64,000 bases of DNA. It comes from a virus. Taxonomy: Duplodnaviria; Heunggongvirae; Uroviricota; Caudoviricetes. This document shows, piece after piece, positions 11,926 to 24,278 of this stretch. How positions within the stretch are numbered: the first letter of the stretch is position 1; the number at the start of each line of letters is the position of its first letter. Below the pieces are notes generated by a model that saw only the letters and a program-made list of their open reading frames with translations, did not search any database and was not told where the DNA came from. Position numbers and translations under genes: made by a program. The stretch lies in the IMG/VR virus record IMGVR_UViG_3300043568_002650, positions 512-64,511 of that record. One strand, 5' to 3'.

Positions 11926-12117
11926 ATGAGTATGACTATAATAGGATTTGTAGATACCAATCCAGACACTGGAGAAGAGTATCCATTTGTTAAGATGTGC
12001 GAGTGTGAACATGAGTGGGCCGTAACCTGGATAGTTAGCGTATTAAAAAGAGATTTATCAGAAAACGCAGATGAGCCAAATCGAGAAATAAAAATAAAAA
12101 CTGATGAAAATACTTAG
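11926..12117 (+). CDS. hypothetical protein
   Basis: ORF in operon. Confidence 0.6.
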   Translation: MSMTIIGFVDTNPDTGEEYPFVKMCECEHEWAVTWIVSVLKRDLSENADEPNREIKIKTDENT

Positions 12118-12370
12118 ACCTGAAGTTGAAGCATGTATCGTAAATGGAGGAGGAATCCAGGACATGTTCGATAATGTAATAAAAGTCCTGTTTAATATTA
12201 CAGATGACGAATATGATTTTATTGCAGAAAGTGCAAGCGATGACGAGTTAAACATATTCTTAGCTGCACTTGGAGACATGGAAAAAGGTTCAAGCTTTAC
12301 TGAAAGACGTAAAGCATTGGAACTTCGAAACACGATATTAGCAAAATTTAACACTGAGGAAAAAGAATAA
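12104..12370 (+). CDS. hypothetical protein
   Basis: ORF in operon. Confidence 0.7.
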   Translation: MKILRPEVEACIVNGGGIQDMFDNVIKVLFNITDDEYDFIAESASDDELNIFLAALGDMEKGSSFTERRKALELRNTILAKFNTEEKE

Positions 12371-12801
12371 TGGAATTCTTAAACTCACACCCAATTAAAA
12401 AGTCAGACCTTGGATTTCATGGGAATCTATTCGGTGGAAAACTTCTTGCCTGGATTGATGCCTCCGCTGCTGGTTATGCAATGCAATTGTGTGATACTCC
12501 TCGTATGGTTACAGTAAGCATAGATAAGTGTAATTTTGAAAAACCTGCAAGGGAGGGTCAACTTATAAAAATCTATGGTTTTCCGCAAGCCATCGGTAAT
12601 AGCTCAGTTAACCTGTATATGGAAGCTAGAGCGCATAGCGTGTACACAGGCAAGCAGGCTATTGTGTTAAAAACACATATCCGGTTTGTACATATTGATG
12701 AGGATGGAAATCCTATTCCAATTGGTGAAAAAGGTAGAACCCGAATCCAACGATTAATTGAATCTGAATATGCGACGAGCGATGTTGATCTTACGAAGTA
12801 G
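12370..12801 (+). CDS. acyl-CoA thioesterase (hotdog fold)
   Basis: HGNLFGGKLLAWIDASA...VTVSID..NFEKP...FVHIDEDGNP. Confidence 0.9.
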   Translation: MEFLNSHPIKKSDLGFHGNLFGGKLLAWIDASAAGYAMQLCDTPRMVTVSIDKCNFEKPAREGQLIKIYGFPQAIGNSSVNLYMEARAHSVYTGKQAIVLKTHIRFVHIDEDGNPIPIGEKGRTRIQRLIESEYATSDVDLTK

Positions 12802-13177
12802 AGCAGACTTTCCTCAAAAGATTGAGGAGATGCAAGTAATGTATCCATCTAAGGCAGAAGCAATGATGGAAGTAGACCATGCGATTGACTACTTGCATAA
12901 AGTCAGAATATACCGACAGTATACTGAGTCTGATGACATGTTTCATTATCAAGTAGTACTTCACATGCAACTTAAGAACTACTTAGAAAATGTGCCAGAC
13001 TGGAAGATAGAACCTGAAGTGAAACCTTCCTTCTTTTCAAAAGCCTTTCATTTAATAACTACATGGCATGTACAAGTGTTAGTATGGATGGTTAAAAACT
13101 TTCCTAAACTCTTTGCTAAACTACGAAAAAGAGTACTGGTAAAACATGCTGAGTTAAAAAAGAAGAATTTAATTTAA
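12758..13177 (+). CDS. hypothetical protein
   Basis: ORF; start uncertain. Confidence 0.6.
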   Translation: MNLNMRRAMLILRSRADFPQKIEEMQVMYPSKAEAMMEVDHAIDYLHKVRIYRQYTESDDMFHYQVVLHMQLKNYLENVPDWKIEPEVKPSFFSKAFHLITTWHVQVLVWMVKNFPKLFAKLRKRVLVKHAELKKKNLI

Positions 13178-13227
13178 AACTTACTTTAAAAAGAGTATTA
13201 TAATTAAAACCTTTTAAATTTAACCAA

Positions 13228-13470
13228 ATGGCATTACGCACTTACATCATCGGTACCGAGAATGTTGGACTAACAACTCACAGAGAAGCAGCTGACTCTA
13301 ATCTTCTTAAAATGAAGGCAAAAAGCGTTGAACACGTACTTCAAACACTTAAAGAAGATTACGATTGGGGCGAATACGAAAAGGGAGGAACCTTCTTCGA
13401 CAAATGGTATTTTCCAAAGGATCAAGTAATAGTTTGCATTGACACACTAGCAAATCTTGATGAATTGTAA
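13228..13470 (+). CDS. hypothetical protein
   Basis: own TTTAAA-N20-TATAAT promoter at 13173-13204. Confidence 0.7.
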   Translation: MALRTYIIGTENVGLTTHREAADSNLLKMKAKSVEHVLQTLKEDYDWGEYEKGGTFFDKWYFPKDQVIVCIDTLANLDEL

Positions 13471-13548
13471 AATAAATTTTTCAACAATTGAAACTTTTTA
13501 TATTTTTGCAGTATAAATAATACAACAAAATAACTATTGATACTTTCA

Positions 13549-13632
13549 ATGAAACAATTAACAAATATCTCAATCCTTAGAACGGCCCTTCTGATAGAAG
13601 CAGGCGAGGGAAGAGTACGGTTAATAAGTTGA
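13549..13632 (+). CDS. putative leader peptide 1 (27 aa, MKQLTNISILRTALLIEAGEGRVRLIS)
   Basis: lies between TATAAATA (13512) and terminator 13654-13684. Confidence 0.55.
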   Translation: MKQLTNISILRTALLIEAGEGRVRLIS

Positions 13633-13653
13633 GTCAAAAATATAAGAATATTT

Positions 13654-13684
13654 AAACCTCAACCCAAAAAGTTGAGGTTTTTTT
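13654..13684 (+). terminator. intrinsic terminator/attenuator
   Basis: AAACCTCAAC/GTTGAGGTTT stem followed by U tract. Confidence 0.85.
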
Positions 13685-13724
13685 GTTTTAATGTGATTGT
13701 AAAAAGAGTATTATAACATTATAT

Positions 13725-13797
13725 CGCGGAGTAGAGAAGTTGGTATCTCGCAAGGCTCATAACCTTGAGGTCGTTCGTTCGAGTCGGACCTCCGCTA
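13725..13797 (+). tRNA. trnM: tRNA-Met(CAT), initiator-like
   Basis: cloverleaf, loop CTCATAA, C1:U72 mismatch. Confidence 0.9.
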
Positions 13798-13811
13798 CTA
13801 AAAAAGAAAAC

Positions 13812-13820
13812 GTTCTTTGA
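13812..13820 (+). promoter_or_regulatory. boxA-like antitermination site (also at 14444-14460, 16709-16725, 19740-19749)
   Basis: GTTCTTTGA(C/A)A repeated four times near starts of RNA blocks. Confidence 0.6.
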
Positions 13821-13827
13821 AAAAATT

Positions 13828-14096
13828 AAGAGTGCTGAGATTACAGGACGAATGTGAAAAACGGAACTTGTTCCAACCACACGGCAGAAGATGCCCTTAA
13901 TAATATTGCAAAAAGTTCGATAGATCTATATTAAGACCCAGGGCACAAATCCGTGTGAGGGAGGCTGAGTAGAAGAAGAACCTGCTATAGAATAATGTAC
14001 GTACACGTACTAATATATAAAGTCCTGAATGTGAGTATGGCAAGGGAGTTGATAATACCGGTTAAAAACAACTTTATTCTATAGATAGCAATACTT
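13828..14096 (+). ncRNA. candidate structured ncRNA (~270 nt, pseudoknotted)
   Basis: CAGGAC/GTCCTG, CACACGG/CCGTGTG, GCCCT/AGGGC, 11-bp CTATAGAATAA/TTATTCTATAG; no ORF. Confidence 0.55.
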
Positions 14097-14168
14097 GTTC
14101 CCATCGTCTAACGGTTAGGACGTTAGGTTTTCATCCTAGAAATCGGAGTTCGATTCTCCGTGGGAATA
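14097..14168 (+). tRNA. trnE: tRNA-Glu(TTC)
   Basis: cloverleaf, loop TTTTCAT. Confidence 0.93.
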
Positions 14169-14174
14169 CAAAAT

Positions 14175-14315
14175 GGTTCCGAATGGATATACTCATAAAC
14201 GTAATGAGTCACTACCGAACGGTGGGTATTAGAAAAATTAAGGCAGTATCTGACGGGGTACTAGTGCTAAGATTGGATGAATATCATGCAGGTTCGACCC
14301 CTGCCGGAATCACCA
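14175..14315 (+). ncRNA. oversized tRNA-like RNA with encoded CCA
   Basis: acceptor GGTTCCG/CGGAATC-A-CCA and T arm GCAGGTTCGACCCCTGC; non-tRNA interior. Confidence 0.65.
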
Positions 14316-14321
14316 AATTAT

Positions 14322-14394
14322 TGTGGAGTAGAGAAGTTGGTATCTCGTTGGGCTCATAACCCAAAGATCGGCAGTTCGAGTCTGTCCTCCGCTA
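14322..14394 (+). tRNA. trnfM: tRNA-fMet(CAT)
   Basis: anticodon stem with GGG/CCC, 1:72 mismatch. Confidence 0.92.
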
Positions 14395-14470
14395 CAACCA
14401 GTATCTGGTAGATAATTAATTTTATCTAACAGATCTAACAAATGTTCTTTGACATATTGGATCTAAAAAC

Positions 14471-14544
14471 GGTTCCGTAGCTCAGCCGGATAGAGCAACG
14501 CCCTTCTAAGGCGAAGGTCGCACGTTCGAATCGTGCCGGGATCA
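14471..14544 (+). tRNA. trnR: tRNA-Arg(TCT)
   Basis: cloverleaf, loop CTTCTAA. Confidence 0.95.
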
Positions 14545-14603
14545 CGGGAGTGTATGCAGTAGAGTTCAGCTTATGAGCAGATGTAACACGCACTTAAAGA
14601 TGG

Positions 14604-14756
14604 GGTTACAAGGTGATAGGCCGTTTGTTCAGCTTTGGCGATAAAAGCTGTCGATTTAAGTCACAAGTTTATCGTAAAAACATATGTTGACCGTGATGTT
14701 ATTGGGTCTGATCACCCGTTTCACGTTAACGGCGAAACCCTCCCAAGGGAGTAGCC
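14604..14756 (+). ncRNA. candidate structured spacer ncRNA
   Basis: GGTTAC/GTAGCC closing stem; GCCGTT/AACGGC, CAGCTTT/AAAGCTG, CTCCC/GGGAG. Confidence 0.4.
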
Positions 14757-14761
14757 AACTT

Positions 14762-14835
14762 GCAGGTATAGCTCAATTGGCTAGAGCGTCGCCCTTCCAA
14801 GGCGAGGGTTGTCGGTTCGAGTCCGACTACCTGCT
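14762..14835 (+). tRNA. trnG: tRNA-Gly(TCC)
   Basis: cloverleaf, loop CTTCCAA. Confidence 0.95.
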
Positions 14836-14840
14836 CTATT

Positions 14841-14915
14841 GGGTTGTTAGCTCAGATTGGCTAGAGCACTGCACTTGCACTGCAGGGGTCAAGGGTTCGA
14901 GTCCCTTACGATCCA
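14841..14915 (+). tRNA. trnA: tRNA-Ala(TGC)
   Basis: cloverleaf, G3:U70, loop CTTGCAC. Confidence 0.95.
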
Positions 14916-14975
14916 CAAAAAGCCTTAACGATTATTTGTACAGTAATCACCGACGGTTAGGCTGCCGTCTCATTT

Positions 14976-15128
14976 GGTTCTATAGCATAACGTGGGTAGC
15001 TCCCAGCAGTCGCGAGTGGGTAAATGATGATAGATTGTCAGTAACACTCCTTAATACTAGGATCGGAGTAAAAGGTTAGGGCATTCTATATGTAGTTTAC
15101 AAGGTGGGTTCGATTCCTACTAGAGCCA
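14976..15128 (+). ncRNA. oversized tRNA-like RNA
   Basis: acceptor GGTTCTA/TAGAGCC-A and T arm GTGGGTTCGATTCCTAC. Confidence 0.55.
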
Positions 15129-15288
15129 CAAAGTGTTGTTCCCTTGAGAAAGGAATATTTTTAGATGATACCTTACTATGCACCTAATCAGTGATTAGGT
15201 AAGGAGTGATAAGGCTGAACGTAACTTAATGCCAAACCATAGTTGAAAATGGTAGATAAAGACAACACAGAGGTTCTCAACCTCAACT

Positions 15289-15370
15289 GCACGAGTGGTG
15301 GAATTGGTAGTCACGCTGGTCTTAGGAACCAGTGCCGTAAGGTGTGAGGGTTCGAGTCCCTCCTTGTGTA
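15289..15370 (+). tRNA. trnL: tRNA-Leu(TAG)
   Basis: cloverleaf with variable arm, loop CTTAGGA. Confidence 0.93.
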
Positions 15371-15447
15371 CGATGTTGGGTAATTCCCAAATGAACTTAG
15401 GGCGGTATCGGGCTAGCCTAAGAGAGATCGACAAAAAGCCCGTCCAT

Positions 15448-15551
15448 AGTCAGGTGGCGGAACGGTAGACGCTAAAATAATGGGTGGATAGCGTGCCATT
15501 GGGGTAGAACCAAGAAAGTTACGCATACAGGTTCGAATCCTGTCCTGACTA
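15448..15551 (+). ncRNA. AGTCAGG-family tRNA-like RNA A (pseudoknot in place of anticodon arm)
   Basis: acceptor AGTCAGG/CCTGACT, Leu-like D arm, T arm; near-copy at 19572. Confidence 0.7.
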
Positions 15552-15717
15552 CAGGTAGCCCTCTGCCTAGCGCTGGGTATGGATCGAAGATGGGGATAGC
15601 CTCTTGAACGTTAGTTAGAATACTTCGGTATCCTTTAATCAATGCGCACTACTCCTTCCGAATCGTGTGTCGGCACAGTTTGTACGTTCTGGGGATAATC
15701 CAAAAACGTGCATTTTT

Positions 15718-15832
15718 AGTCAGGTGGTGGAATGGTAAAGCACCTGGTGAGCGGTAAATGGTAGGGAGTCATGACCTGAGAGTATACGTTAAGTCTTGCC
15801 ATGAGATGCAGGTTCGACCCCTGTCCTGACTA
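15718..15832 (+). ncRNA. AGTCAGG-family tRNA-like RNA C
   Basis: same acceptor, D and T arms; 115 nt, no canonical anticodon arm. Confidence 0.65.
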
Positions 15833-15894
15833 CGCAAAAAACACTGGGCTAAGTTTCCTTACCTCGCGAGAGACGGGTTTTATATGCCTAACAT

Positions 15895-16016
15895 AGTTAG
15901 GTGGTGAAATGGTAGACCGCCCCTTCTCATCAAAGGGGAGATGGAGTTCGAATCTCTGAAGTTGAGTAAAATCAACGAGTATAGTACTATTACAGGTTCG
16001 AATCCTGTCCTGACTA
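15895..16016 (+). ncRNA. AGTCAGG-family tRNA-like RNA D (CAT loop, multi-arm variable region)
   Basis: CCCCTT-CTCATCA-AAGGGG arm, second TTCGAAT loop, canonical T arm. Confidence 0.65.
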
Positions 16017-16177
16017 CAAACTTTTACTTGACTCCGATAGGATAGTAAAGCTCATTGGGAATTCGGAAATACCGTGAATGAGGGCGCAAGTAACGGAAAC
16101 TTGCAATGGCGGAGTGCCAAATACACTAGAAACGAGTCCTTGGGTGATCAATGGATGGTCTGAAATCTCCGCTAACT

Positions 16178-16251
16178 GGTCCTTTAACTCAGTCTGGTAG
16201 AGTGCCGCGCTCATAACGCGAGAGTCGTAGGTTCAAATCCTGCATGGACCA
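16178..16251 (+). tRNA. tRNA-Met/Ile2(CAT)
   Basis: cloverleaf, loop CTCATAA; elongator-like. Confidence 0.88.
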
Positions 16252-16382
16252 CTGGAAAATATTTTAAATAAAAATGAAAAAATATTTTACTTATTAAAAT
16301 AAAAGGTGTATATTAGCAACCTCAAACGATCAAATAGATCCAATACGTTAAAAATTAGAAATTGATAAGATAAATAAACACG

Positions 16383-16538
16383 ATGAAAAACATTAACAAC
16401 ATATTAAACACGTCATATCAGACTTTACCTAGTTCGCCGATGAGCTGGAGTTCGATCTGTGACTTTAATGTTGTGCGTTTAAATAACACGTTTATTGATC
16501 CTAAACAACACTTAAAAAATACTCGGGAATTGATGTAA
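16383..16538 (+). CDS. putative leader peptide 2 (51 aa, MKNINNILNTSYQ...)
   Basis: lies between ATAAATA (16370) and terminator 16564-16594. Confidence 0.55.
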   Translation: MKNINNILNTSYQTLPSSPMSWSSICDFNVVRLNNTFIDPKQHLKNTRELM

Positions 16539-16563
16539 ATCTTTAATTATATCAAACTAAAAT

Positions 16564-16594
16564 AAACCCGAGTCCAAAAGATTCGGGTTTTTTT
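16564..16594 (+). terminator. intrinsic terminator/attenuator
   Basis: AAACCCGAGTC/GATTCGGGTTT stem followed by U tract. Confidence 0.85.
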
Positions 16595-16602
16595 GTTTTA
16601 TT

Positions 16603-16675
16603 GCTTTCGTAGCTCAGTCGGTAGAGTGCCTCACTTGTAATGAGGATGTCATCGGTTCGAACCCGGTCGAAAGCT
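16603..16675 (+). tRNA. trnT: tRNA-Thr(TGT)
   Basis: cloverleaf, loop CTTGTAA. Confidence 0.95.
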
Positions 16676-16733
16676 CAAAAGATTGTTGAACTTCAATCTA
16701 AAAAAAATGTTCTTTGACATATTGGCTTTAAAT

Positions 16734-16804
16734 TTTCCCCTCGTCTAACGGCAGGACACGTGGTTTTGGTCCACGGAATCGAGGTTCGAATCCTTGGGGG
16801 AAAA
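16734..16804 (+). tRNA. trnQ: tRNA-Gln(TTG)
   Basis: cloverleaf, loop TTTTGGT. Confidence 0.93.
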
Positions 16805-16810
16805 CAATAA

Positions 16811-16896
16811 GGAAGTTTAATTAAGCTGGCGCTTAACCTAGTCTTGAAAACTAGTGGTACTGAAATATGTATGGGGATCGATACCTCAGGCTTCCT
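16811..16896 (+). tRNA. trnS: tRNA-Ser(TGA)
   Basis: long variable arm, loop CTTGAAA. Confidence 0.88.
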
Positions 16897-16958
16897 CAAA
16901 AGCGATCCACTGTGCGCTATATAAAAAGTCTTGCTTCGGCATGCTACACAGTGGACAA

Positions 16959-17031
16959 CTAGGCATGGGAAAGTTGGTAATCCGCGTGGTTTGGGACCAC
17001 GAGACCGCAGGTTCGAGCCCTGCTGCTTAGA
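16959..17031 (+). tRNA. trnP: tRNA-Pro(TGG)
   Basis: cloverleaf, loop TTTGGGA. Confidence 0.93.
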
Positions 17032-17127
17032 CGATATGGCTCATTTAGAAGTATTTTATGGATCAAATACTAGTCTAAATGAGCCATAAGTAGAAACAAG
17101 ATGATCCACAAATAAAAAATTAAACTC

Positions 17128-17346
17128 ATGGAGACAACCGTAATTAAAAAAGAGCTTTATAAACAAAAGCCTATTGCAAAATTAAAATTCATCAGATTAG
17201 GAGTAGCTTATTATTCAGCCCCAATTGAACATGAAAGTAAAACAGTAGATATTGAATTTCAAGTTCCAATTACAGACATGGGAGATACTGATTTTTATCC
17301 ATTAATGGATGCAAAATTATTAAACAGATACATCACAAACCTTTAA
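17128..17346 (+). CDS. hypothetical protein inside tRNA array
   Basis: 72 aa ORF with A-rich leader. Confidence 0.7.
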   Translation: METTVIKKELYKQKPIAKLKFIRLGVAYYSAPIEHESKTVDIEFQVPITDMGDTDFYPLMDAKLLNRYITNL

Positions 17347-17399
17347 AAAAATCCAAAGATTATGGAAAGTGACAAGAGCGACAAGAGTCGCAAACGAGA

Positions 17400-17474
17400 G
17401 ATCTCGTAGCTCAGTTGGTTTAGAGCACCTCACTTTTAATGAGGGAGTCGTGGGTTCGAGCCCCACCGGGATCA
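17400..17474 (+). tRNA. trnK: tRNA-Lys(TTT)
   Basis: cloverleaf, loop CTTTTAA. Confidence 0.95.
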
Positions 17475-17478
17475 CACA

Positions 17479-17600
17479 TGGGGAAGAATGCAAAACAATT
17501 CGCTCTTTTGCCGTTCTTCAGCAATGATAGTAATTAAAGAGTTTCATCGCAATTAAACAGTAAATTTAATGATTTGGCCCTAAGAAGCCCTTCCCCACCA
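17479..17600 (+). ncRNA. candidate CCA-ending structured RNA upstream of TROVE gene
   Basis: TGGGGAAG/CTTCCCCA stem then CCA; AATGCAAAA shared with the 19759 RNA. Confidence 0.5.
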
Positions 17601-17667
17601 ATTCAATAAACACAAATTTGTATCAATAAACTAGTCCTGTTTATTGTAACAAAAATGAGTTTATTAT

Positions 17668-17740
17668 GCACCTTTAGCTCAGCTGGTAGAGCGCTTGTTT
17701 TACATGCAAGATGTCACAGGTTCGATCCCTGTAGGGTGTA
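17668..17740 (+). tRNA. trnV: tRNA-Val(TAC)
   Basis: cloverleaf, loop TTTACAT. Confidence 0.95.
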
Positions 17741-17839
17741 CAAAACCTTTTTCGAAAAAAGTTTAAGCAAAAAGTGAAACTATCAGTTTTTATATTGTAT
17801 AGTATTAATCACAAAACAAAAAATTAATTCCTTGTACTA

Positions 17840-19468
17840 ATGACAAAGTTTAGAAACGACAAACTTCGTTCGACGCTAGCTGGAATGCAGCCTCAAGCGA
17901 ATCTGGTAGAAGCGGTGAAAATCCCAAAACCAGACACTAAGAATCGTCAAGGACATGCAGCTTATTCACAAGATAAGTGGCTTAGACTCTTGACGATGTT
18001 AAACACACTAAAGCTAGAAAATCAATTCTATCGTTCTGAGACAGAAACGATGAGGGAGTTGAAAGGACTAGTCGATGAGTGTGCAAAAGAAGACGCTTAC
18101 TTCGTAGCTCAATCTATCGTGTATTCACGATGTGTTGGTGAAGGAATGAGATCAATTAACCACCTTGCGGCAAGCTACCTAGCTCCACACTGTGCGGGTC
18201 AAGAATGGGCAAAACGTTTCTATTCCCTATGGAACAAACGTACTCAATCCGGAGGAACATTATTTCGTCCAGATGATATGGCTGAAATCGTTGCATGCTT
18301 CTCAGCATTAAACGGGACTAAAGTCACAAATGCAATGAAAAAAGGATTTGCTGATGCTCTTGAAAACTTAGATGCTTATGCATTACTAAAATACAAGAGC
18401 TCTCTAGTTGACGTAATCAACTTAGTTCACCCAAATCCATCAGCGTCTAGTGCAGTAGCAGAGGTAAATGGAGAAAAAGTTCCAGTTCTTTCGGCTATCA
18501 TGAAAGGCTTATCAGTATCTGCGGATACTTGGGAAGTTGCTCAGTCTGATGCAGGTCAAGAAGTTGCGAAAGCAGTTAAAGAAGGTAAAATCGACAAGTC
18601 AGAAGCTGAAACTATCCTAAAGGAAGCTAAGGCTGAAAACTGGGATGCTCTTTTAACTGACGGTAAACTTGGAATCCTAGCTGCTCTTCGAAATATTAGA
18701 AATGTATTGAAGACAGTTAACAAAGGAGACACGGTTACTAAATTGACTGCTCTTTTATCTAGTCCAGATGCAATCCGAAAAGGAAAGATTATGCCATACC
18801 AAATTGACCTAGCTCACGAGGTAACGATCTCAGAATTCTCTGATTCTAATGCTAGAGCGATTGCACAAGCATTACTTAAAGGATATGAAGCAGCTGTGCC
18901 AAACCTTTCAGAGATGCTTCCTGGTAAGACTCTAGTAATGGTGGATTTCTCTGGATCAATGGGTACACCAATGACGGATGGCGCAAGAAGCGGAAAACGT
19001 TATACTAGTCGATGCATGGATAAAGCGGCTTTGATCGCAGCAACCATTGCAAAGGCAACAAATGGAGATGTAATCCGATTTGGTTCAAGTGCTGAATACG
19101 TAAAATGGAACGCTAACTCTGATGTATTCTCTATTGCTAGCGCAATGAAGAGAGATATGGGAGGAACTAACTTATCAGCAGCATGGGCAGTAGCTCAAAT
19201 GTCTGGACGTCAGTACGACCGAGTGTTCATCTTATCTGATAATGAGTGTAACCGTGGAAACTCTTACAAAGCATACGAGACATACACAAAAGCATGCGGA
19301 AGCCCATACGTTTACTCGGTGGATCTAGCAGCTTACGGAACGACTCAACTTGCTGGAGATAAAGTTCGTTTCTACTATGGATACGGATACTCAATGTTCG
19401 ATGATATCGCAAAAAGCGAGTTCAATCCAAATTATCACTTAGAGAAAGTTCGCAAGATCAAAATCTAA
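17840..19468 (+). CDS. rsr: TROVE/vWA RNA-binding protein (Ro60/Rsr family)
   Basis: helical TROVE-like region (LKYKSSLVDVINLVHP, ALRNIRN, IMPYQI) and vWA MIDAS VDFSGSM...GGTNL...FILSDNE. Confidence 0.85.
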   Translation: MTKFRNDKLRSTLAGMQPQANLVEAVKIPKPDTKNRQGHAAYSQDKWLRLLTMLNTLKLENQFYRSETETMRELKGLVDECAKEDAYFVAQSIVYSRCVGEGMRSINHLAASYLAPHCAGQEWAKRFYSLWNKRTQSGGTLFRPDDMAEIVACFSALNGTKVTNAMKKGFADALENLDAYALLKYKSSLVDVINLVHPNPSASSAVAEVNGEKVPVLSAIMKGLSVSADTWEVAQSDAGQEVAKAVKEGKIDKSEAETILKEAKAENWDALLTDGKLGILAALRNIRNVLKTVNKGDTVTKLTALLSSPDAIRKGKIMPYQIDLAHEVTISEFSDSNARAIAQALLKGYEAAVPNLSEMLPGKTLVMVDFSGSMGTPMTDGARSGKRYTSRCMDKAALIAATIAKATNGDVIRFGSSAEYVKWNANSDVFSIASAMKRDMGGTNLSAAWAVAQMSGRQYDRVFILSDNECNRGNSYKAYETYTKACGSPYVYSVDLAAYGTTQLAGDKVRFYYGYGYSMFDDIAKSEFNPNYHLEKVRKIKI

Positions 19469-19480
19469 ATAAAAAATAAG

Positions 19481-19564
19481 ATTGCTGGGTGGCAAGTTAC
19501 AGAGTTACTTCTTTATATCTGAAACATAAAACCAAAATACTCTCGACAGTATTCCCCCAGCAAT
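19481..19564 (+). ncRNA. Y-RNA-like RNA 1 (minimal)
   Basis: 9-bp ATTGCTGGG/CCCAGCAAT stem, interrupted helix, TTACTTC motif, 13 nt after TROVE stop. Confidence 0.6.
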
Positions 19565-19571
19565 TTTTTAT

Positions 19572-19675
19572 AGTCAGGTGGCGGAATGGTAGACGCTACA
19601 TTAATGGGTGGATAGTGTGCCATTGGGGAAGAACCATAAAAGTTACACATATGGGTTCGATTCCTGTCCTGACTA
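19572..19675 (+). ncRNA. AGTCAGG-family tRNA-like RNA B
   Basis: near-copy of 15448-15551 with compensatory GCGT/ACGC to GTGT/ACAC change. Confidence 0.7.
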
Positions 19676-19696
19676 CAAAAAAATATTAAGAATAAT

Positions 19697-19728
19697 TTTA
19701 AACGTAAAAGGATTCTTAGTATTATAAT
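19697..19728 (+). promoter_or_regulatory. middle-class promoter TTTAA(A/T)-N19-20-TATAAT (also 13173, 13687, 59434, 60679)
   Basis: five + strand copies with AGTATTATA(A/G) core and near-constant spacing. Confidence 0.6.
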
Positions 19729-19758
19729 CAAGTAAACAAGTTCTTTGAAAAAAATTAA

Positions 19759-19889
19759 TTATCGGGTAGTAATGCAAAAGGTTACTTCTTAGCTCAGCGG
19801 TTGAGCAATTTTCTTAAACAAAATAGGCCGCGGGTTCAATTCCCGCAGAAGCGCGAAAGCGTTACACCTTTGCAACTTTCTCCTGATAA
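19759..19889 (+). ncRNA. Y-RNA-like RNA 2 with embedded tRNA-like cloverleaf
   Basis: TTATCGGG/CCTGATAA stem, bulged TGCAAAAGGT/ACCTTTGCA helix, D arm, CTTAAAC loop, T arm. Confidence 0.7.
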
Positions 19890-19895
19890 ACTTAT

Positions 19896-20034
19896 TAAAG
19901 GTAATAGTAATCTAAACCGTTACTTCGTCTGTTAAACGAGAGGTCGTTGGTTCGAATCCAACATGGGGAGTAATCTTCATTAGCTCAGCTGGCTAGAGCG
20001 CTAAAATCTCGGTTGGAAACTTTCTTTACCTTTA
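19896..20034 (+). ncRNA. Y-RNA-like RNA 3 with circularly permuted tRNA-Asn(GTT)
   Basis: TAAAGGTAA/TTACCTTTA stem; order: anticodon arm, T arm, ATGGGGA-GTAA-TCTTCAT closed acceptor, D arm. Confidence 0.75.
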
Positions 20035-20040
20035 TCATTT

Positions 20041-20245
20041 GGAAGATATTCCCTCAGTTATGAGCTAATAGCAGTTTATTCTAGTTTCCTATAAAACTAG
20101 AGGTGCTGTTGACTGGGGCCAGAATCAGTTAATGCCTTTTTAGAGAGCGAAGAGTTTGGAAGCGAAGCTCTACCTTTGATCAGATGCTAGCATGAAGATC
20201 AAGCATAAGAGGCCGGAAGATGGAATGTAAGCCGGCCTCTTTTTT
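20041..20245 (+). ncRNA. candidate structured ncRNA ending in a GC hairpin plus U tract
   Basis: TCTAGTTT/AAACTAGA, TTGACTG/CAGTTAA, TTGATC/GATCAA, AAGAGGCCGG/CCGGCCTCTT. Confidence 0.4.
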
Positions 20246-20259
20246 AAAATCAATTTATT

Positions 20260-20338
20260 GGAGTGTTGAGCATTTGGCTGGCTCGCTTGACTGTAAATCA
20301 AGTCCTAACGGCATGGGGGTTCGAATCCCTTCACTCCA
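20260..20338 (+). tRNA. trnY: tRNA-Tyr(GTA)
   Basis: variable arm, loop CTGTAAA. Confidence 0.92.
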
Positions 20339-20341
20339 ACG

Positions 20342-20478
20342 AAAGATAGTGGCCTTCTCTGTCGATGCTGTCGACAAGCTAAGCAGATCAAAGAATTTCA
20401 TCACCCTTTGCTGAGGCCTCATTAAAACTCAGGAAGCAATTAAGATTGGAGCGAGACGGGTACTCCATCACTATCTTT
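20342..20478 (+). ncRNA. candidate structured spacer ncRNA
   Basis: perfect 10-bp AAAGATAGTG/CACTATCTTT closing stem with internal hairpins. Confidence 0.55.
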
Positions 20479-20487
20479 TATTTTTTC

Positions 20488-20561
20488 GGTCTGTCAGTCC
20501 AGTTGGAGTGGACGCCTGCCTGTCACGTAGGAGATCACGGGTTCGAGTCCCGTACGGACCG
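20488..20561 (+). tRNA. trnD: tRNA-Asp(GTC)
   Basis: cloverleaf, loop CTGTCAC. Confidence 0.95.
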
Positions 20562-20614
20562 CCGGGAATATTTTGTACCTTCATTGAGATAAATAATCAA
20601 AATGAAGGTACACT

Positions 20615-21271
20615 ATGGCAAGAAAGGAACATCAATATCATTACATTTACAAGACTACTTGTAATGTTACTGGAAGATATTACATCGGGATGCACTCGAC
20701 TTCTAACTTAGAAGATAGATATATTGGAAGCGGGACTAGATTATGGAAGTCACTCAATAAACATGGAAAGGAGAATCATTCAATTGAAATATTAGAATGG
20801 TATTCAGATAGAAATTCATTGAAACTAAGAGAAAAAGAATTAGTTAATGAGGAAACTCTTAATGATCCAATGTGTATGAATTTAATGATTGGTGGAGGAG
20901 GTGGAAAAATATCAGACGAGCAACAAAGGTCTAGATCAATCACTGGAGGTCGTGCATTTGCTAATAAATTAAAAAGTGATCCTGAGTTATTAAAACACGT
21001 TCAAATGATTGCATCAAATAACTTGAAAAAATTACATGAGAAAGGAGATTTCAATTATAATACTTTTCAAGGAAAGACGCATTCCGATGAGACTAAAAAT
21101 AAAATTGGAGCAGCAAATTCAATTAAGCAGAGTGGATATAATAATTCACAATATGGAACTTGTTGGATAACTAATGAAATTGATTCTAAGAAAATTCATA
21201 AGGGCGATCTTATCCCAAGTGGATGGAGATTAGGTCGAAAAGCCCTCAAAATAAGAAGTCGTAACTCCTAG
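20615..21271 (+). CDS. GIY-YIG homing endonuclease with NUMOD3-like motif (Seg-like)
   Basis: YIYKTTCNVTGRYYIGMHST...YIGSG; GKTHSDETKNKIG. Confidence 0.88.
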   Translation: MARKEHQYHYIYKTTCNVTGRYYIGMHSTSNLEDRYIGSGTRLWKSLNKHGKENHSIEILEWYSDRNSLKLREKELVNEETLNDPMCMNLMIGGGGGKISDEQQRSRSITGGRAFANKLKSDPELLKHVQMIASNNLKKLHEKGDFNYNTFQGKTHSDETKNKIGAANSIKQSGYNNSQYGTCWITNEIDSKKIHKGDLIPSGWRLGRKALKIRSRNS

Positions 21272-21301
21272 TAAAAACCTAGGCTAATTTCTTGTTTATC
21301 T

Positions 21302-21377
21302 GGACTCATAGCTCAATTGGTAGAGCATCGCACTGTTAATGCGAGGGTTGTAGGATCGTGCCCTGCTGAGTCCGCCA
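21302..21377 (+). tRNA. trnN: tRNA-Asn(GTT)
   Basis: cloverleaf, encoded CCA, atypical T loop ATCGTGC. Confidence 0.9.
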
Positions 21378-21389
21378 AAAATTGAATAT

Positions 21390-21463
21390 ATCCATGTATT
21401 TCAGCTGGTTAGAATATCACCCTGATAAGGTGAAGGTCGAAGGTTCAAGTCCTTCCATGGATA
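21390..21463 (+). tRNA. trnI: tRNA-Ile(GAT)
   Basis: cloverleaf, loop CTGATAA. Confidence 0.93.
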
Positions 21464-21519
21464 CAAAGGGGAGTAACTTGCGTGGGTGCCCCAAGTGCTG
21501 CAGCATTACCACGCTCTAC

Positions 21520-21611
21520 GGAAATGTGTCAGAGTGGTTTATTGTACTTCCCTGCTAAGGAAGTGGTCGCTGCAAAGAGGCCCGTTGGTTCGAATCCAGC
21601 CATTTCCGCCA
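21520..21611 (+). tRNA. trnS: tRNA-Ser(GCT)
   Basis: long variable arm, loop CTGCTAA, encoded CCA. Confidence 0.95.
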
Positions 21612-21614
21612 AAC

Positions 21615-21684
21615 ATCGTGACTTAGTGGAAAAGAACGAGCTCTCATAAGGCACGTCAAGTGAGTTCGAACCTCACGCACGATA
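21615..21684 (+). tRNA. degenerate tRNA(CAT)
   Basis: good T arm and CTCATAA loop; weak D and anticodon stems. Confidence 0.55.
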
Positions 21685-21702
21685 CTAAAAAATAAAAAAA
21701 TT

Positions 21703-21858
21703 ATGAAAGTAATAATGACAGGAAATTTCGAATCATCTAAATTGATGCTTCGAGGAAGAGACCCATCGCCCAAAGGACGAAAGGGATGGCGTAGTCGGGC
21801 CGCACAAGTCTGCATCAAGTTTACGAATAAATTGACGAAGGCCAAGTCAATGGTGTAA
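21703..21858 (+). CDS. small basic hypothetical protein (51 aa)
   Basis: A-rich leader; below the ORF-track size cutoff. Confidence 0.45.
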   Translation: MKVIMTGNFESSKLMLRGRDPSPKGRKGWRSRAAQVCIKFTNKLTKAKSMV

Positions 21859-21891
21859 ATCGACTCTCCCCACTTACGGAGTGGGGTTTAT

Positions 21892-21966
21892 GGTGGTTGT
21901 AGCTCAGTTGGTTAGAGCGCTGGTTTGTGGTACCAGAGGTGGTGGGTTCGAGACCCATCTTCCACC
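21892..21966 (+). tRNA. trnH: tRNA-His(GTG)
   Basis: G-1:C73, loop TTGTGGT. Confidence 0.9.
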
Positions 21967-21979
21967 CAAAAAACAAAAT

Positions 21980-22062
21980 GCCTCGATGGTGGAATTGGTA
22001 GTCACGTCGTGTTTAAGCCGCGATATCTTTAAGGTGTGAGGGTTCGACTCCCTCTCGAGGTA
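21980..22062 (+). tRNA. trnL: tRNA-Leu(TAA)
   Basis: variable arm, loop TTTAAGC. Confidence 0.9.
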
Positions 22063-22064
22063 CT

Positions 22065-22183
22065 AAAGGAATGGTAAGTGAAGCTGTTAGGTACGATAAG
22101 GTTTAATCACCCAAAGCATTAAAAAAAGGGTTTGGAGTAAACGTACAAACCAGAAACCCCGAGAGACCCGAGGCCATTCCTTT
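22065..22183 (+). ncRNA. candidate structured spacer ncRNA
   Basis: perfect 10-bp AAAGGAATGG/CCATTCCTTT closing stem. Confidence 0.5.
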
Positions 22184-22188
22184 TCTTT

Positions 22189-22262
22189 ACACCTTTAGCT
22201 CAGCTGGATAGAGTCTCTGATTACGGATCAGATGGTCGGGAGTTCGAATCTCTCAAGGTGTA
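22189..22262 (+). tRNA. trnR: tRNA-Arg(ACG)
   Basis: cloverleaf, loop TTACGGA. Confidence 0.93.
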
Positions 22263-22308
22263 CTCTTATAGAATCCGATGTCGGTCCCGATCTAGGTCGG
22301 GCAAATAC

Positions 22309-22381
22309 ACAGACATAGCTCAGTTGGTAGAGCACTGGTCTCCAAAACCAGGTGTCGGGAGTTCGAGCCTCTCTGTCTGTG
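22309..22381 (+). tRNA. trnW: tRNA-Trp(CCA)
   Basis: cloverleaf, loop CTCCAAA. Confidence 0.95.
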
Positions 22382-22388
22382 CTCAATT

Positions 22389-22464
22389 GGTGAAGTAGCA
22401 AAGCTGGTCTATGCAGCGGACTGAAAATCCGATGATGGCGGTTCGACTCCGTCCTTCACCACCA
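22389..22464 (+). tRNA. trnF: tRNA-Phe(GAA)
   Basis: cloverleaf, loop CTGAAAA, encoded CCA. Confidence 0.93.
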
Positions 22465-22482
22465 AAAGCCAATATGTTTCAT

Positions 22483-22552
22483 GGTCAGGCTAGTCGCGGC
22501 GGCTAGTTGGTCTGCAAAACCACCGGAGTGAGTTCGACTCTCACCCTGACCT
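22483..22552 (+). tRNA. trnC: tRNA-Cys(GCA)
   Basis: loop CTGCAAA, U73; atypical D arm. Confidence 0.88.
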
Positions 22553-22573
22553 CTTTTTAATATGTCTCCTCAG

Positions 22574-22580
22574 ATAAATA
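22574..22580 (+). promoter_or_regulatory. T4-like late promoter (G/T)ATAAATA (also 106, 3317, 5272, 5712, 13513, 16370, 20589, 28586; - strand near 32225, 34140, 36418, 38320, 39310, 42958, 63323)
   Basis: recurrent ATAAATA 10-40 nt before starts; resembles the T4 late promoter TATAAATA. Confidence 0.7.
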
Positions 22581-22598
22581 ATAAAAAGTCTTATTGGG

Positions 22599-24278
22599 TT
22601 GGCACCTTTTCATATATTTGCAAAGAAAAATGCAAAGAAACTTTCAAATTTTAAAGTAGGAGTTAGCCTACGAATAAAGATAAAATTAGCAATTGCTGCA
22701 ATTCTAATGATTGCATATATGTGCGTTAAAATTTCAATTCTTGCTGGATTGCGTGAGTCTACTGAGGTTACTCGATGGATAGAATTTGTTGGTGTTATTT
22801 CATATATTCTAATATCAATCCTATTAATTAAAGACTTTATCAATTTAACTAAACATTCAGTATCTAAGGAATCTATTGATAAGATGAGTGAGTTAGAAAA
22901 TTTCTTAGACTCTTCGTCAATTATATCTAAGGCTGATGCTAAAGGTAAAATTACTTATGTAAATGATAAATTCACTAAGGTTTCTGGTTACTCACTAGAA
23001 GAAGTGCTTGGAAAAGATCACTCTATTGTAAATTCAGGAGATCAACCTGATGGATATTGGGGAAAAATGTATGCTCAAGTTCTTACTGGAAAAATATGGA
23101 ATGATGTAGTCACAAATAGAGCAAAGGATGGCTCTCTATATTATGTAGATACTTATATCAAAGCTCAATTTAATCAGCATGGTAAGCTTGAAGGATTTAT
23201 GTCGATTCGCCAAGATGTTACTGAGCTACGAAGAAGGGAGGCTGAGATATCTAATAGAATGAATGCAATTAATAGATCAAATGCTGTTATTGAATTTGAC
23301 CTAGATGGAAATATTAAATTTGCAAACGATTTATTTTTAAAAACATTAGGCTACTCCTTAAATAGTGAAATTATAGGAAAACACCATAGTTTATTTGTTG
23401 AAGATGAAGTAATAGATACTGATGAATATCGAGACTTTTGGAAAACATTGGGCACTGGCAAATTCTTTATGGGAGAGATCACTCGAAAGAAGAAAGACGG
23501 ATCACTAATCTATCTTCAAGCAACATATAATCCTATTATAGGCACTGATGGAAAGCCATATCGAGTAATGAAAATCGCTACTGATATTACTCAAAGTTTT
23601 AATCAACAAGCTGAAATTGAAAAGAAGAATACTTATCTTGAGCATGCGGCAAAGATTCTACGGCATGATATGCATAGTGGAATCAATACCTATATGCCTC
23701 GAGGATTATCATCACTAGAACGAAGACTTTCAGATGACCAGATAAAAGAGCTTAAGATTGAAGCTCCACTAAAAATGATTAAAGAAGGATTACGACACAC
23801 TCAAAAAGTATATAAAGGAGTTTACGAATTTACTAATCTAGTAAAAAAGGATGTTGTTCTTACTCGCGAAGACTTAAATCTCAAAGACATACTCGAGGAC
23901 TATTTGTCCTCGACTGCATATAGACCGCAAGTAATAATCTCAGATCTAGGTCAGTCTAGTGTTAATGAAGCATTATTTTGTACTTCATTAGATAATCTTA
24001 TTCGTAATGGTTTAAAGTATAATGACAGTCCTAGTAAACTAGTTAAGATATACCGTATTGATGATATTCTTTATGTTGAAGACAATGGACGCGGTTTAAG
24101 CCAAGAAGATTTTAACCATCTTTCCAAACCATATACACGAAAAGAAGGACAGCAGGAATCAGGAACTGGTCTTGGGCTTAATATCTGTATTGCAATTCTT
24201 GAAGAACATGGATTCTCTATTACTTGTTCTAAACTTTCACAAGTTGGAACGCAAATGAAAATACGACTAAGCAGATAA
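22599..24278 (+). CDS. PAS/PAC sensor histidine kinase
   Basis: 2 TM helices, two PAS-PAC units, H box RHDMHSG, N box DNLIRNGLKY, G1 EDNGRG, G2 GTGLGL. Confidence 0.92.
   Translation: MAPFHIFAKKNAKKLSNFKVGVSLRIKIKLAIAAILMIAYMCVKISILAGLRESTEVTRWIEFVGVISYILISILLIKDFINLTKHSVSKESIDKMSELENFLDSSSIISKADAKGKITYVNDKFTKVSGYSLEEVLGKDHSIVNSGDQPDGYWGKMYAQVLTGKIWNDVVTNRAKDGSLYYVDTYIKAQFNQHGKLEGFMSIRQDVTELRRREAEISNRMNAINRSNAVIEFDLDGNIKFANDLFLKTLGYSLNSEIIGKHHSLFVEDEVIDTDEYRDFWKTLGTGKFFMGEITRKKKDGSLIYLQATYNPIIGTDGKPYRVMKIATDITQSFNQQAEIEKKNTYLEHAAKILRHDMHSGINTYMPRGLSSLERRLSDDQIKELKIEAPLKMIKEGLRHTQKVYKGVYEFTNLVKKDVVLTREDLNLKDILEDYLSSTAYRPQVIISDLGQSSVNEALFCTSLDNLIRNGLKYNDSPSKLVKIYRIDDILYVEDNGRGLSQEDFNHLSKPYTRKEGQQESGTGLGLNICIAILEEHGFSITCSKLSQVGTQMKIRLSR

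Follow-up and report, generated by a model that had tools for sequence, protein, structure and literature searches.

The window analyzed here, a stretch of 64,000 nucleotides with a G+C content of 37%, represents half of a 128.5-kb phage genome whose source is lake water, and 25 tRNA genes are located between its positions 13.7 and 22.6 kb. A gene for a hotdog-fold thioesterase was observed at 12370-12801, with more than 200 relatives among viral contigs. By this gene, the closest relative in culture is Flavobacterium phage vB_FspM_immuto_2-6A, whose thioesterase is 66% identical, and a Bacteroidota host is therefore indicated as probable. This assignment was inferred from the thioesterase relationship, and the coupling of transcription and translation in the host is not established. 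No attenuator-type module was seen upstream of the four tRNAs in vB_FspM_immuto_2-6A; therefore, no isolate is at hand for experiments.

The features of the locus are listed in Table 1. The first tRNA-Met of block 1 is an insertion specific to this genome and a near-copy of the tRNA at 14322-14395, while in the close copies of the locus described below (L001, L002, L005, and L006) the block opens with tRNA-Glu. Both Met-CAU tRNAs carry a mismatched 1:72 pair and are initiator-like, and the one at 14322-14395 also contains GGG:CCC in the anticodon stem.

Table 1. Features in front of tRNA block 1 and of the twin module, with positions counted from the first nucleotide of the window.
Feature	Position	Strand	Description
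Promoter region P1	13489..13519	+	TTGAAA at 13489-94; TAnnTTTG-type box TATTTTTG at 13501-08; TATAAATA at 13512-19; promoter class inferred, not shown
Leader ORF	13549..13632	+	ATG at 13549, 27 sense codons, TGA at 13630-13632; peptide MKQLTNISILRTALLIEAGEGRVRLIS; translation not shown
Putative sensing stretch, codons 10-22	13576..13614	+	CTT AGA ACG GCC CTT CTG ATA GAA GCA GGC GAG GGA AGA = L R T A L L I E A G E G R
Hypervariable codons 23-26	13615..13626	+	VRLI / ALFR / LLLR in three lineages
Anti strand GTTGAG	13628..13633	+	overlaps TGA at 13630-32; complementary to CTCAAC at 13658-63
Inner AU hairpin	13638..13653	+	AAAUAU / AUAUUU, loop AAGA; inside the antiterminator helix
Intrinsic terminator	13654..13689	+	AAACCTCAAC at 13654-63, loop CCAAAAA, GTTGAGGTTT at 13671-80, then TTTTGTTTT; 10-bp hairpin and T-run
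Second promoter-like box P2	13684..13716	+	TTTTAA, 16 nt, AGTATTATAAC; between the terminator and the first tRNA; function inferred
tRNA block 1	13725..15371	+	Met-CAU (13725-98), Glu-UUC, Met-CAU, Arg-UCU, Gly-UCC, Ala-UGC, Leu-UAG
Twin module	16383-16590		ATAAATA box; 51-codon ORF MKNINNIL...TRELM; terminator at 16564, 13 nt before tRNA-Thr

Close copies of the element formed by P1, the leader ORF, and the terminator were found in three further lineages, represented by L001/L002, L005, and L006. In exact-pattern scans of viral contigs and metagenome contigs, close copies were detected only in L001-L006, and a blastn search yielded none in 78 further thioesterase-anchored loci, most of which contained no tRNAs in the fetched stretch. 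In L005 and L006, the element was 88% identical to that of the window, compared with 70-77% for the neighbouring thioesterase gene, and it is therefore constrained at the nucleotide level.

Promoter region P1 was kept in all of these copies, although the DNA farther upstream diverges. Its 3′ part, TATAAATA, matches an ATAAATA motif that recurs upstream of genes of this phage; 73 copies are present in the genome, 36 of which sit 5-39 nt before an ORF of at least 60 aa, and the motif resembles the T4 late promoter. TAnnTTTG boxes, on the other side, are typical of Bacteroidota promoters. An earlier note on this locus had called P1 a late promoter, and this held only in part: TATAAATA fits the ATAAATA motif, but the TAnnTTTG and TTGAAA boxes just upstream leave the class unsettled, and either an ATAAATA (T4-late-like) or a Bacteroidota-type TAnnTTTG promoter remains possible. 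Judged from sequence alone, transcription from P1 would be expected to begin at about 13515-13526. A block similar to the upstream part of P1 (GAAACTTT..TAnnTTTGCA) was also present in modules of the related phage loci L088, L089, and L096.

Across four metatranscriptome runs, contigs over 13470-13620 were found in one run and none over 13623-13716, and contigs cannot show ends. The segment 13470-13620 was covered by one read-length RNA-library contig, and its beginning upstream of P1 points to read-in from upstream or to DNA carry-over.

The ends of the second box, P2, were conserved in L001, L005, and L006, with a variable spacer between them. Boxes of this type occur four times in the genome (13195, 13708, 19719, and 59456), each preceding a gene or a tRNA. 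As inferred from sequence, a second, unregulated promoter is probable for block 1, and it may belong to a different temporal class. Since P2 is located after the terminator, the attenuator proposed below is probably not the sole input to tRNA block 1, which corrects the simpler picture given in the earlier note. As a separate observation, all four P2-type boxes consist of TTTTAA, about 16 nt, and AGTATTATAA(T/C), with TATAAT perfect or near-perfect; two lie before protein genes (ATG at 13228 and 59494) and two before tRNAs (13725 and 19783).

A 27-codon open frame is by itself unremarkable in AT-rich DNA. The frame, length, and stop of the leader were all maintained in L001, L002, L005, and L006, and its N-terminus, MKxxxNIS, resembles that of most other leaders of the family described below. 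The leader ORF has no Shine-Dalgarno sequence, like most genes of this phage, in which such a sequence was found for 14 of 150 genes; initiation at the leader therefore cannot be judged from its absence.

Within codons 10-22, 11 of 13 consecutive codons are read by the downstream Glu-UUC, Arg-UCU, Gly-UCC, Ala-UGC, and Leu-UAG tRNAs, a match that was absent from the earlier note. In L005 and L006, 12 of the 13 codons were cognate, codon 12 being GCG. In leaders simulated with the codon usage of the phage, P was about 5e-4 for 11/13 and about 3e-5 for 12/13; the length of the tested stretch was picked post hoc. Over the whole target leader, the enrichment was modest (z about 2 at the amino-acid level and 0.75 under strict wobble rules). 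Decoding of ATA (codon 16) by a lysidine tRNA of the block was considered and dropped, the two CAU tRNAs of block 1 being initiator-like by their mismatched 1:72 pair.

Codons 1-22 were almost invariant at all three codon positions across the copies. Only one site in this part, position 13587, has several alleles (C, A, or T), all of which encode Ala (GCC, GCA, and GCT). Conservation of third positions is expected where particular codons, beyond amino acids, are sensed. Codons 23-26 were the sole freely varying codons, with 7 of 12 bases differing without an indel or a stop. Codon identity may be free there because a ribosome decoding codons 23-26 would already cover and mask the anti strand, which is an inference.

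The fold of 13549-13653 was no better than that of shuffled sequences (z -0.55). A structured non-coding RNA inside the ORF was rejected on this value; AATTAAC/GTTAAT seemed to co-vary when L005 was compared with the window, but a hand analysis gave a mixed picture.

The region behind the leader is able to adopt two alternative folds that share CTCAAC (13658-13663), a part of the terminator 5′ arm. In nascent RNA comprising 13620-13666, the GUUGAG:CUCAAC helix closes the inner AU hairpin with -7.9 kcal/mol (z -4.9), a value matched by 0 of 200 shuffles, and the pair probabilities of this antiterminator were approximately 0.97-1.0 in nascent RNA without the 3′ arm. After addition of the 3′ arm, the terminator won with -15.5 kcal/mol (including flanks; z -3.6).

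The positions given in the earlier note for the promoter motif, the 27-codon ORF, GTTGAG/CTCAAC, and the terminator held for every base, and the complementarity of the two hexamers held as a fact. Its significance from the 6-mer alone failed (shuffle p 0.07): in 6.9% of dinucleotide shuffles, the 5′ arm paired at least as well with the 45 nt that precede it, whereas the whole fold was significant.

The sequence AGTTGAGTC at the anti strand was invariant in all copies, and the terminator was also invariant in the close copies. The antiterminator fold was kept or strengthened in L001, L005, and L006, the last two gaining two G-C pairs. In the same three loci, the inner hairpin was retained with altered sequences, and such a hairpin was present in nearly all modules of the related phages.

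Several other designs were considered for this region. A region 1:2 protector hairpin was not met: pairing of CTCAAT (13569-74) with GTTGAG was rejected, its probability being at most 0.01. The 1:2 hairpin defines the trp-type subclass and not attenuation itself. Direct occlusion of the terminator by the ribosome, as in pyrBI, was also rejected: 22 nt separate the end of the stop codon from the 5′ arm, a distance beyond the reach of a terminating ribosome. Rfam searches returned only tRNA hits and a sub-threshold match to the L10 leader, and no T-box (RF00230) was hit in 13480-13730 at E up to 10, nor in 12000-24000 at E up to 1. The ribosomal protein L10 leader (RF00557) was rejected because it scored 26.4 bits against a threshold of 44, with 30 central model positions skipped and only the flanks and the terminator aligned.

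For comparison within the genome, every predicted terminator was scored by the gain of its 5′ arm from pairing with the 45 nt upstream. The terminators located directly before tRNA blocks, at 13654 and 16564, ranked 1 and 2 of 20 in the 128.5-kb genome for antiterminator potential. The latter belongs to the twin module, in which ACTCGGG (16521-27) pairs with CCCGAGT (16567-73) around a hairpin containing the stop codon, with a nascent fold of -15.1 kcal/mol (z -4.9). The twin has the same anatomy as the target and an unrelated sequence. Its leader showed no enrichment for the amino acids served by the tRNAs that follow (Thr, Gln, Pro, Lys, and Val; z 0.4).

The analysis was extended to 33 loci of related phages, taken around a Ro60-like gene lying within the tRNA region. 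Terminators located at most 150 nt before a tRNA averaged -6.9, compared with -3.0 for the others (22 vs. 36; Mann-Whitney p 1.6e-6); this p value is indicative only, as the terminator rows are related and not independent. About 12 different terminator stems were found before tRNAs, each with its own matching upstream strand. When the upstream strands of 12 non-redundant modules were swapped, the mean with the module's own upstream sequence was -9.6, compared with -4.5 for foreign ones, and 0 of 18,398 derangements reached the observed sum. The anti helix of the target, only 6 bp long, ranked 5th of 12 in its own column of the swap matrix.

Co-variation was most readily followed in a sub-family with the frame AAACCTC...GAGGTTT, in which the stem centre varies (CAAC, GGT, GAAC, and GGAC) and the upstream strand varies in step. 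The terminator frame of the target recurs with co-varying stems in L088, L093, L113, and L095.

A leader ORF with ATG, 19-51 codons long, was present in all but two of the unique modules of the relatives, ending 19-35 nt before the terminator arm; in the 13 non-redundant modules of the relatives, the ORFs comprised 17-51 codons. Wherever a leader ORF was detected (16 of 16 modules), the first base of its stop codon lies -10 to +15 nt from the 3′ end of the anti strand, so that this strand would be covered each time a ribosome terminates. Most leader peptides begin with MKN(I/L)xNIS or a close variant, and many end with R-S-stop (L088, L089, L091, L096, L098, L118, L119, and the window). Given this common N-terminus, the modules likely form a family spread by duplication in which the sensing middle has been rewritten, as far as can be inferred from sequence alone.

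The composition of the leaders was compared with the tRNA blocks behind them in 13 non-redundant modules, for whose definition no peptide motif was used. The sum of z for the leader amino acids was 23.4, and it was reached by 0 of 22,174 derangements (mean -3.5, maximum 11.5); codon-level tests with wobble rules agreed with this result. The match was uneven, being strong in about half of the modules and lacking in several, including the twin at 16383. A control using tRNAs upstream of the leaders was of limited use, just 2 of the 13 modules having any.

The clearest case was observed in L096, where the leader MKNLFHTTTSSSTSTSSCDEDTRALLRDR precedes Ser, Ser, Thr, Cys, His, Thr, Ser, Glu, and Asp tRNAs. 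Another leader of the same locus, MNNQFGNINKPFMPQGNIPF..., precedes Phe, Lys, Pro, Tyr, Ile, Trp, Gln, Asn, and Gly tRNAs, and in L091 the leader MINISNILPSSLRPSIRRS precedes Ser, Arg, Pro, Ile, Met, and Leu tRNAs. With respect to the earlier note, which had treated the arrangement in this phage only, the ORF and the antiterminator proved conserved in L001, L002, L005, and L006, and the design is not confined to this phage, the anatomy recurring with other sequences in related phages.

Of the criteria of an attenuator that could be judged from sequence, a leader ORF upstream on the same strand, enrichment of cognate codons, an intrinsic terminator, and a mutually exclusive antiterminator were all found in the target, and only the 1:2 hairpin was lacking. 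The structure is more than chance, given the z of -4.9 of the nascent fold, the 88% identity of the element, the ranks 1-2 of 20, and the recurrence with different sequences in relatives. The two alternative folds, their conservation, the co-variation of the anti strand with the terminator, the geometry of the stop codon, and the match between leader codons and tRNAs are shown by computation. On this basis, the element is likely a ribosome-mediated transcription attenuator gating tRNA block 1, a reading that no experiment yet supports. The promoter, translation of the leader, its coupling to transcription, the response to stalling and its direction, and the trigger (loss of host tRNA, cleavage, or mismatch in codon usage) are all inferred.

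In the proposed mechanism, transcription from P1 would produce the leader RNA, and in naked RNA GUUGAG (13628-33) would pair with CUCAAC (13658-63) around the AU hairpin before the 3′ arm of the terminator exists. The antiterminator would thus form by default, and RNA polymerase would continue into the tRNA genes. An undelayed ribosome would reach the last codons and the stop, cover or unwind GUUGAG, and free CUCAAC for the terminator, so that transcription would end at the T-run. With slow decoding at codons 10-22, the ribosome would be held back before it could mask the anti strand, and transcription would proceed into the tRNA genes. As these codons (Leu, Arg, Ala, Glu, and Gly) are read by the downstream tRNAs, the block would be made on demand.

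Masking of the antiterminator by a ribosome at the stop codon had been taken from classical attenuation in the earlier note, and it is supported by the fold, by the stop-codon geometry, and by the co-variation of anti strand and arm, by computation only and without any experiment. The further proposal, that stalling under tRNA shortage leads to read-through into the tRNA array, is likewise supported by computation, its direction and trigger remaining inferred.

Three rival explanations were considered. According to the first, which is unlikely but survives best, the element is a self-contained transcription unit for a small gene or RNA of the ordinary kind, the tRNAs are transcribed from P2 behind the terminator of that unit, and the GTTGAG/CTCAAC complementarity has no regulatory role. 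In its favour, P2 (13684-13716) is one of a four-member class located before genes and tRNAs and might drive the tRNAs on its own, the 6-mer by itself lacks significance, and the element is conserved at the nucleotide level, as expected of a small RNA. However, this explanation does not account for the co-variation of anti strand and terminator arm over about 12 modules, for the difference between pre-tRNA terminators and the others, for the constant position of the stop codon at the anti strand, or for leader peptides that mirror the downstream tRNAs.

The second rival, considered very unlikely, is a translation-independent RNA switch, in which a protein, a tRNA (T-box-like), or a small ligand would bind the conserved segment 13569-13614 and the ORF would be incidental. 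The conservation of this core at all three codon positions and the lack of a Shine-Dalgarno sequence on the leader are in agreement with it, and the TRAP-controlled trp leader of Bacillus follows such a logic, with read-through as the default and a terminator induced by a factor. Against it, no Rfam family matched (the L10 leader only sub-threshold, and no T-box even at E 10), the ORF region has no significant fold, and third-position conservation is also expected under codon sensing. Moreover, ORFs with a common N-terminal motif, a stop at the anti strand, and a tRNA-matched composition recur across the modules.

The third rival, considered very unlikely, is a constitutive antiterminator or processing structure without sensing. 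The upstream strand would keep the hairpin from acting in the sense direction at all times, and the hairpin would instead stabilise the RNA, mark a site of processing, or terminate transcription in the antisense direction. This reading is suggested by the bidirectional appearance of many hairpins flanked by an A-run and a T-run and by a nascent fold favouring the antiterminator. Against it, the long T-run lies on the sense strand (TTTTTTTGTTTT) with just UUU in the antisense direction, and the ORFs, stop positions, and codon match are left unexplained.

The attenuator reading, being preferred over these rivals, can be compared with known systems. Leader-peptide attenuators of enterobacterial amino-acid operons include trpL, hisL, leuL, thrL, pheL, and ilvL/ivbL (PMC3082878 for pheL; the rest are textbook examples). 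The phage element shares with them a short ORF with sensing codons, an intrinsic terminator before the regulated genes, an antiterminator that uses the same 5′ arm, and a fold decided by the position of the ribosome; like the ilvGMEDA and thr leaders, the phage leader would sense several amino acids together. The order of events, with the antiterminator first and the terminator more stable, is also that of the trp attenuator.

Unlike the amino-acid operons, the phage module would regulate tRNA genes and not biosynthetic enzymes, and it would sense the products of its own operon. It also differs from the enterobacterial leaders in being phage-borne, in occurring as many paralogous modules per genome, and in residing in a probable Bacteroidota host with genes lacking Shine-Dalgarno sequences. 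The absence of region 1 (the 1:2 hairpin) separates it from trp and corrects the classical scheme adopted in the earlier note: untranslated RNA should read through instead of being super-attenuated, and abolishing leader translation is therefore predicted to give read-through.

Among the genes of the translation apparatus, the phenylalanyl-tRNA synthetase of E. coli is controlled by the pheST (pheM leader) attenuator. The phage module resembles it as leader-peptide attenuation of a translation-apparatus gene responding to the supply of charged tRNA, whereas the pheST attenuator is found in a cell, governs a synthetase, and responds to only one amino acid. T-box riboswitches (RF00230) similarly comprise a terminator/antiterminator switch tied to tRNA status in front of translation-related genes, but they bind uncharged tRNA directly and have no leader ORF. 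In the TRAP-controlled trp leader of Bacillus subtilis, the antiterminator forms by default and a factor on its 5′ strand permits the terminator; the default is the same in the phage module, the proposed factor being the translating ribosome and not an RNA-binding protein.

The tRNA genes of phages are commonly regarded as cargo with passive expression, adjusting codon usage or replacing tRNAs cleaved by host defences, and to our knowledge the control of their expression is essentially undescribed. No description of leader-peptide attenuation of phage tRNA genes was found in the literature searched (full text), and the statement of the earlier note that none was known for phage tRNA arrays thus held. 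The attenuator design itself is classical; tRNA genes as the regulated class, self-referential sensing, and many paralogous phage modules are new.

If the attenuator reading is true, tRNA supply would be subject to direct feedback in which the ribosome is the sensor and the output is the sensed molecule, a logic found described only for amino-acid and synthetase genes in the literature searched. Classical attenuation would then operate in phages of (probably) Bacteroidota whose genes lack Shine-Dalgarno sequences. The tRNAs that a phage treats as limiting could be predicted from its sequence, and the modules would provide compact natural parts reporting the decoding rate of chosen codons.

A bolder reading, toward which the present evidence does not quite tip the balance, would take the attenuators as demand sensors that double as a counter-defence switch. 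Each block would be autoregulated by the decoding speed of its own codons and would replace tRNAs that the host lacks or has lost to anticodon nucleases or infection-induced shutdown, only when needed, and leaders and blocks would co-evolve as units shuffled between phages.

Several minor observations concern the tRNA region itself. The motif (G)TTCTTTGA(A/C)A was found on the + strand at 13813, 14445, 16710, and 19741, only inside the tRNA region and 14-35 nt before tRNAs. It was also present after most attenuator terminators of the relatives and after the tRNA-Cys of Flavobacterium phage immuto (L120 6833-6842). Its distance from the tRNAs is too short for a sigma-70 -35 box, so the motif could possibly be a processing signal or another type of promoter. 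An assignment of TTCTTTGACA after the terminators as a sigma-70 -35 box was rejected because it lies too close to the tRNA, which begins just 14-16 nt later.

The spacer between tRNA-Met and tRNA-Glu (13812-13984) was found in contigs of two metatranscriptome studies (X16 and X17) with one mismatch. A stable non-coding RNA is conceivable here, and no Rfam family matched the spacer. Weak Rfam tRNA hits with long insertions (104-122 nt) were observed between annotated tRNAs at 15448-16016 and 19572-19675, and a YrlA-like hit was located at 19939-20002, beside the Ro60-like gene at 17840-19468.
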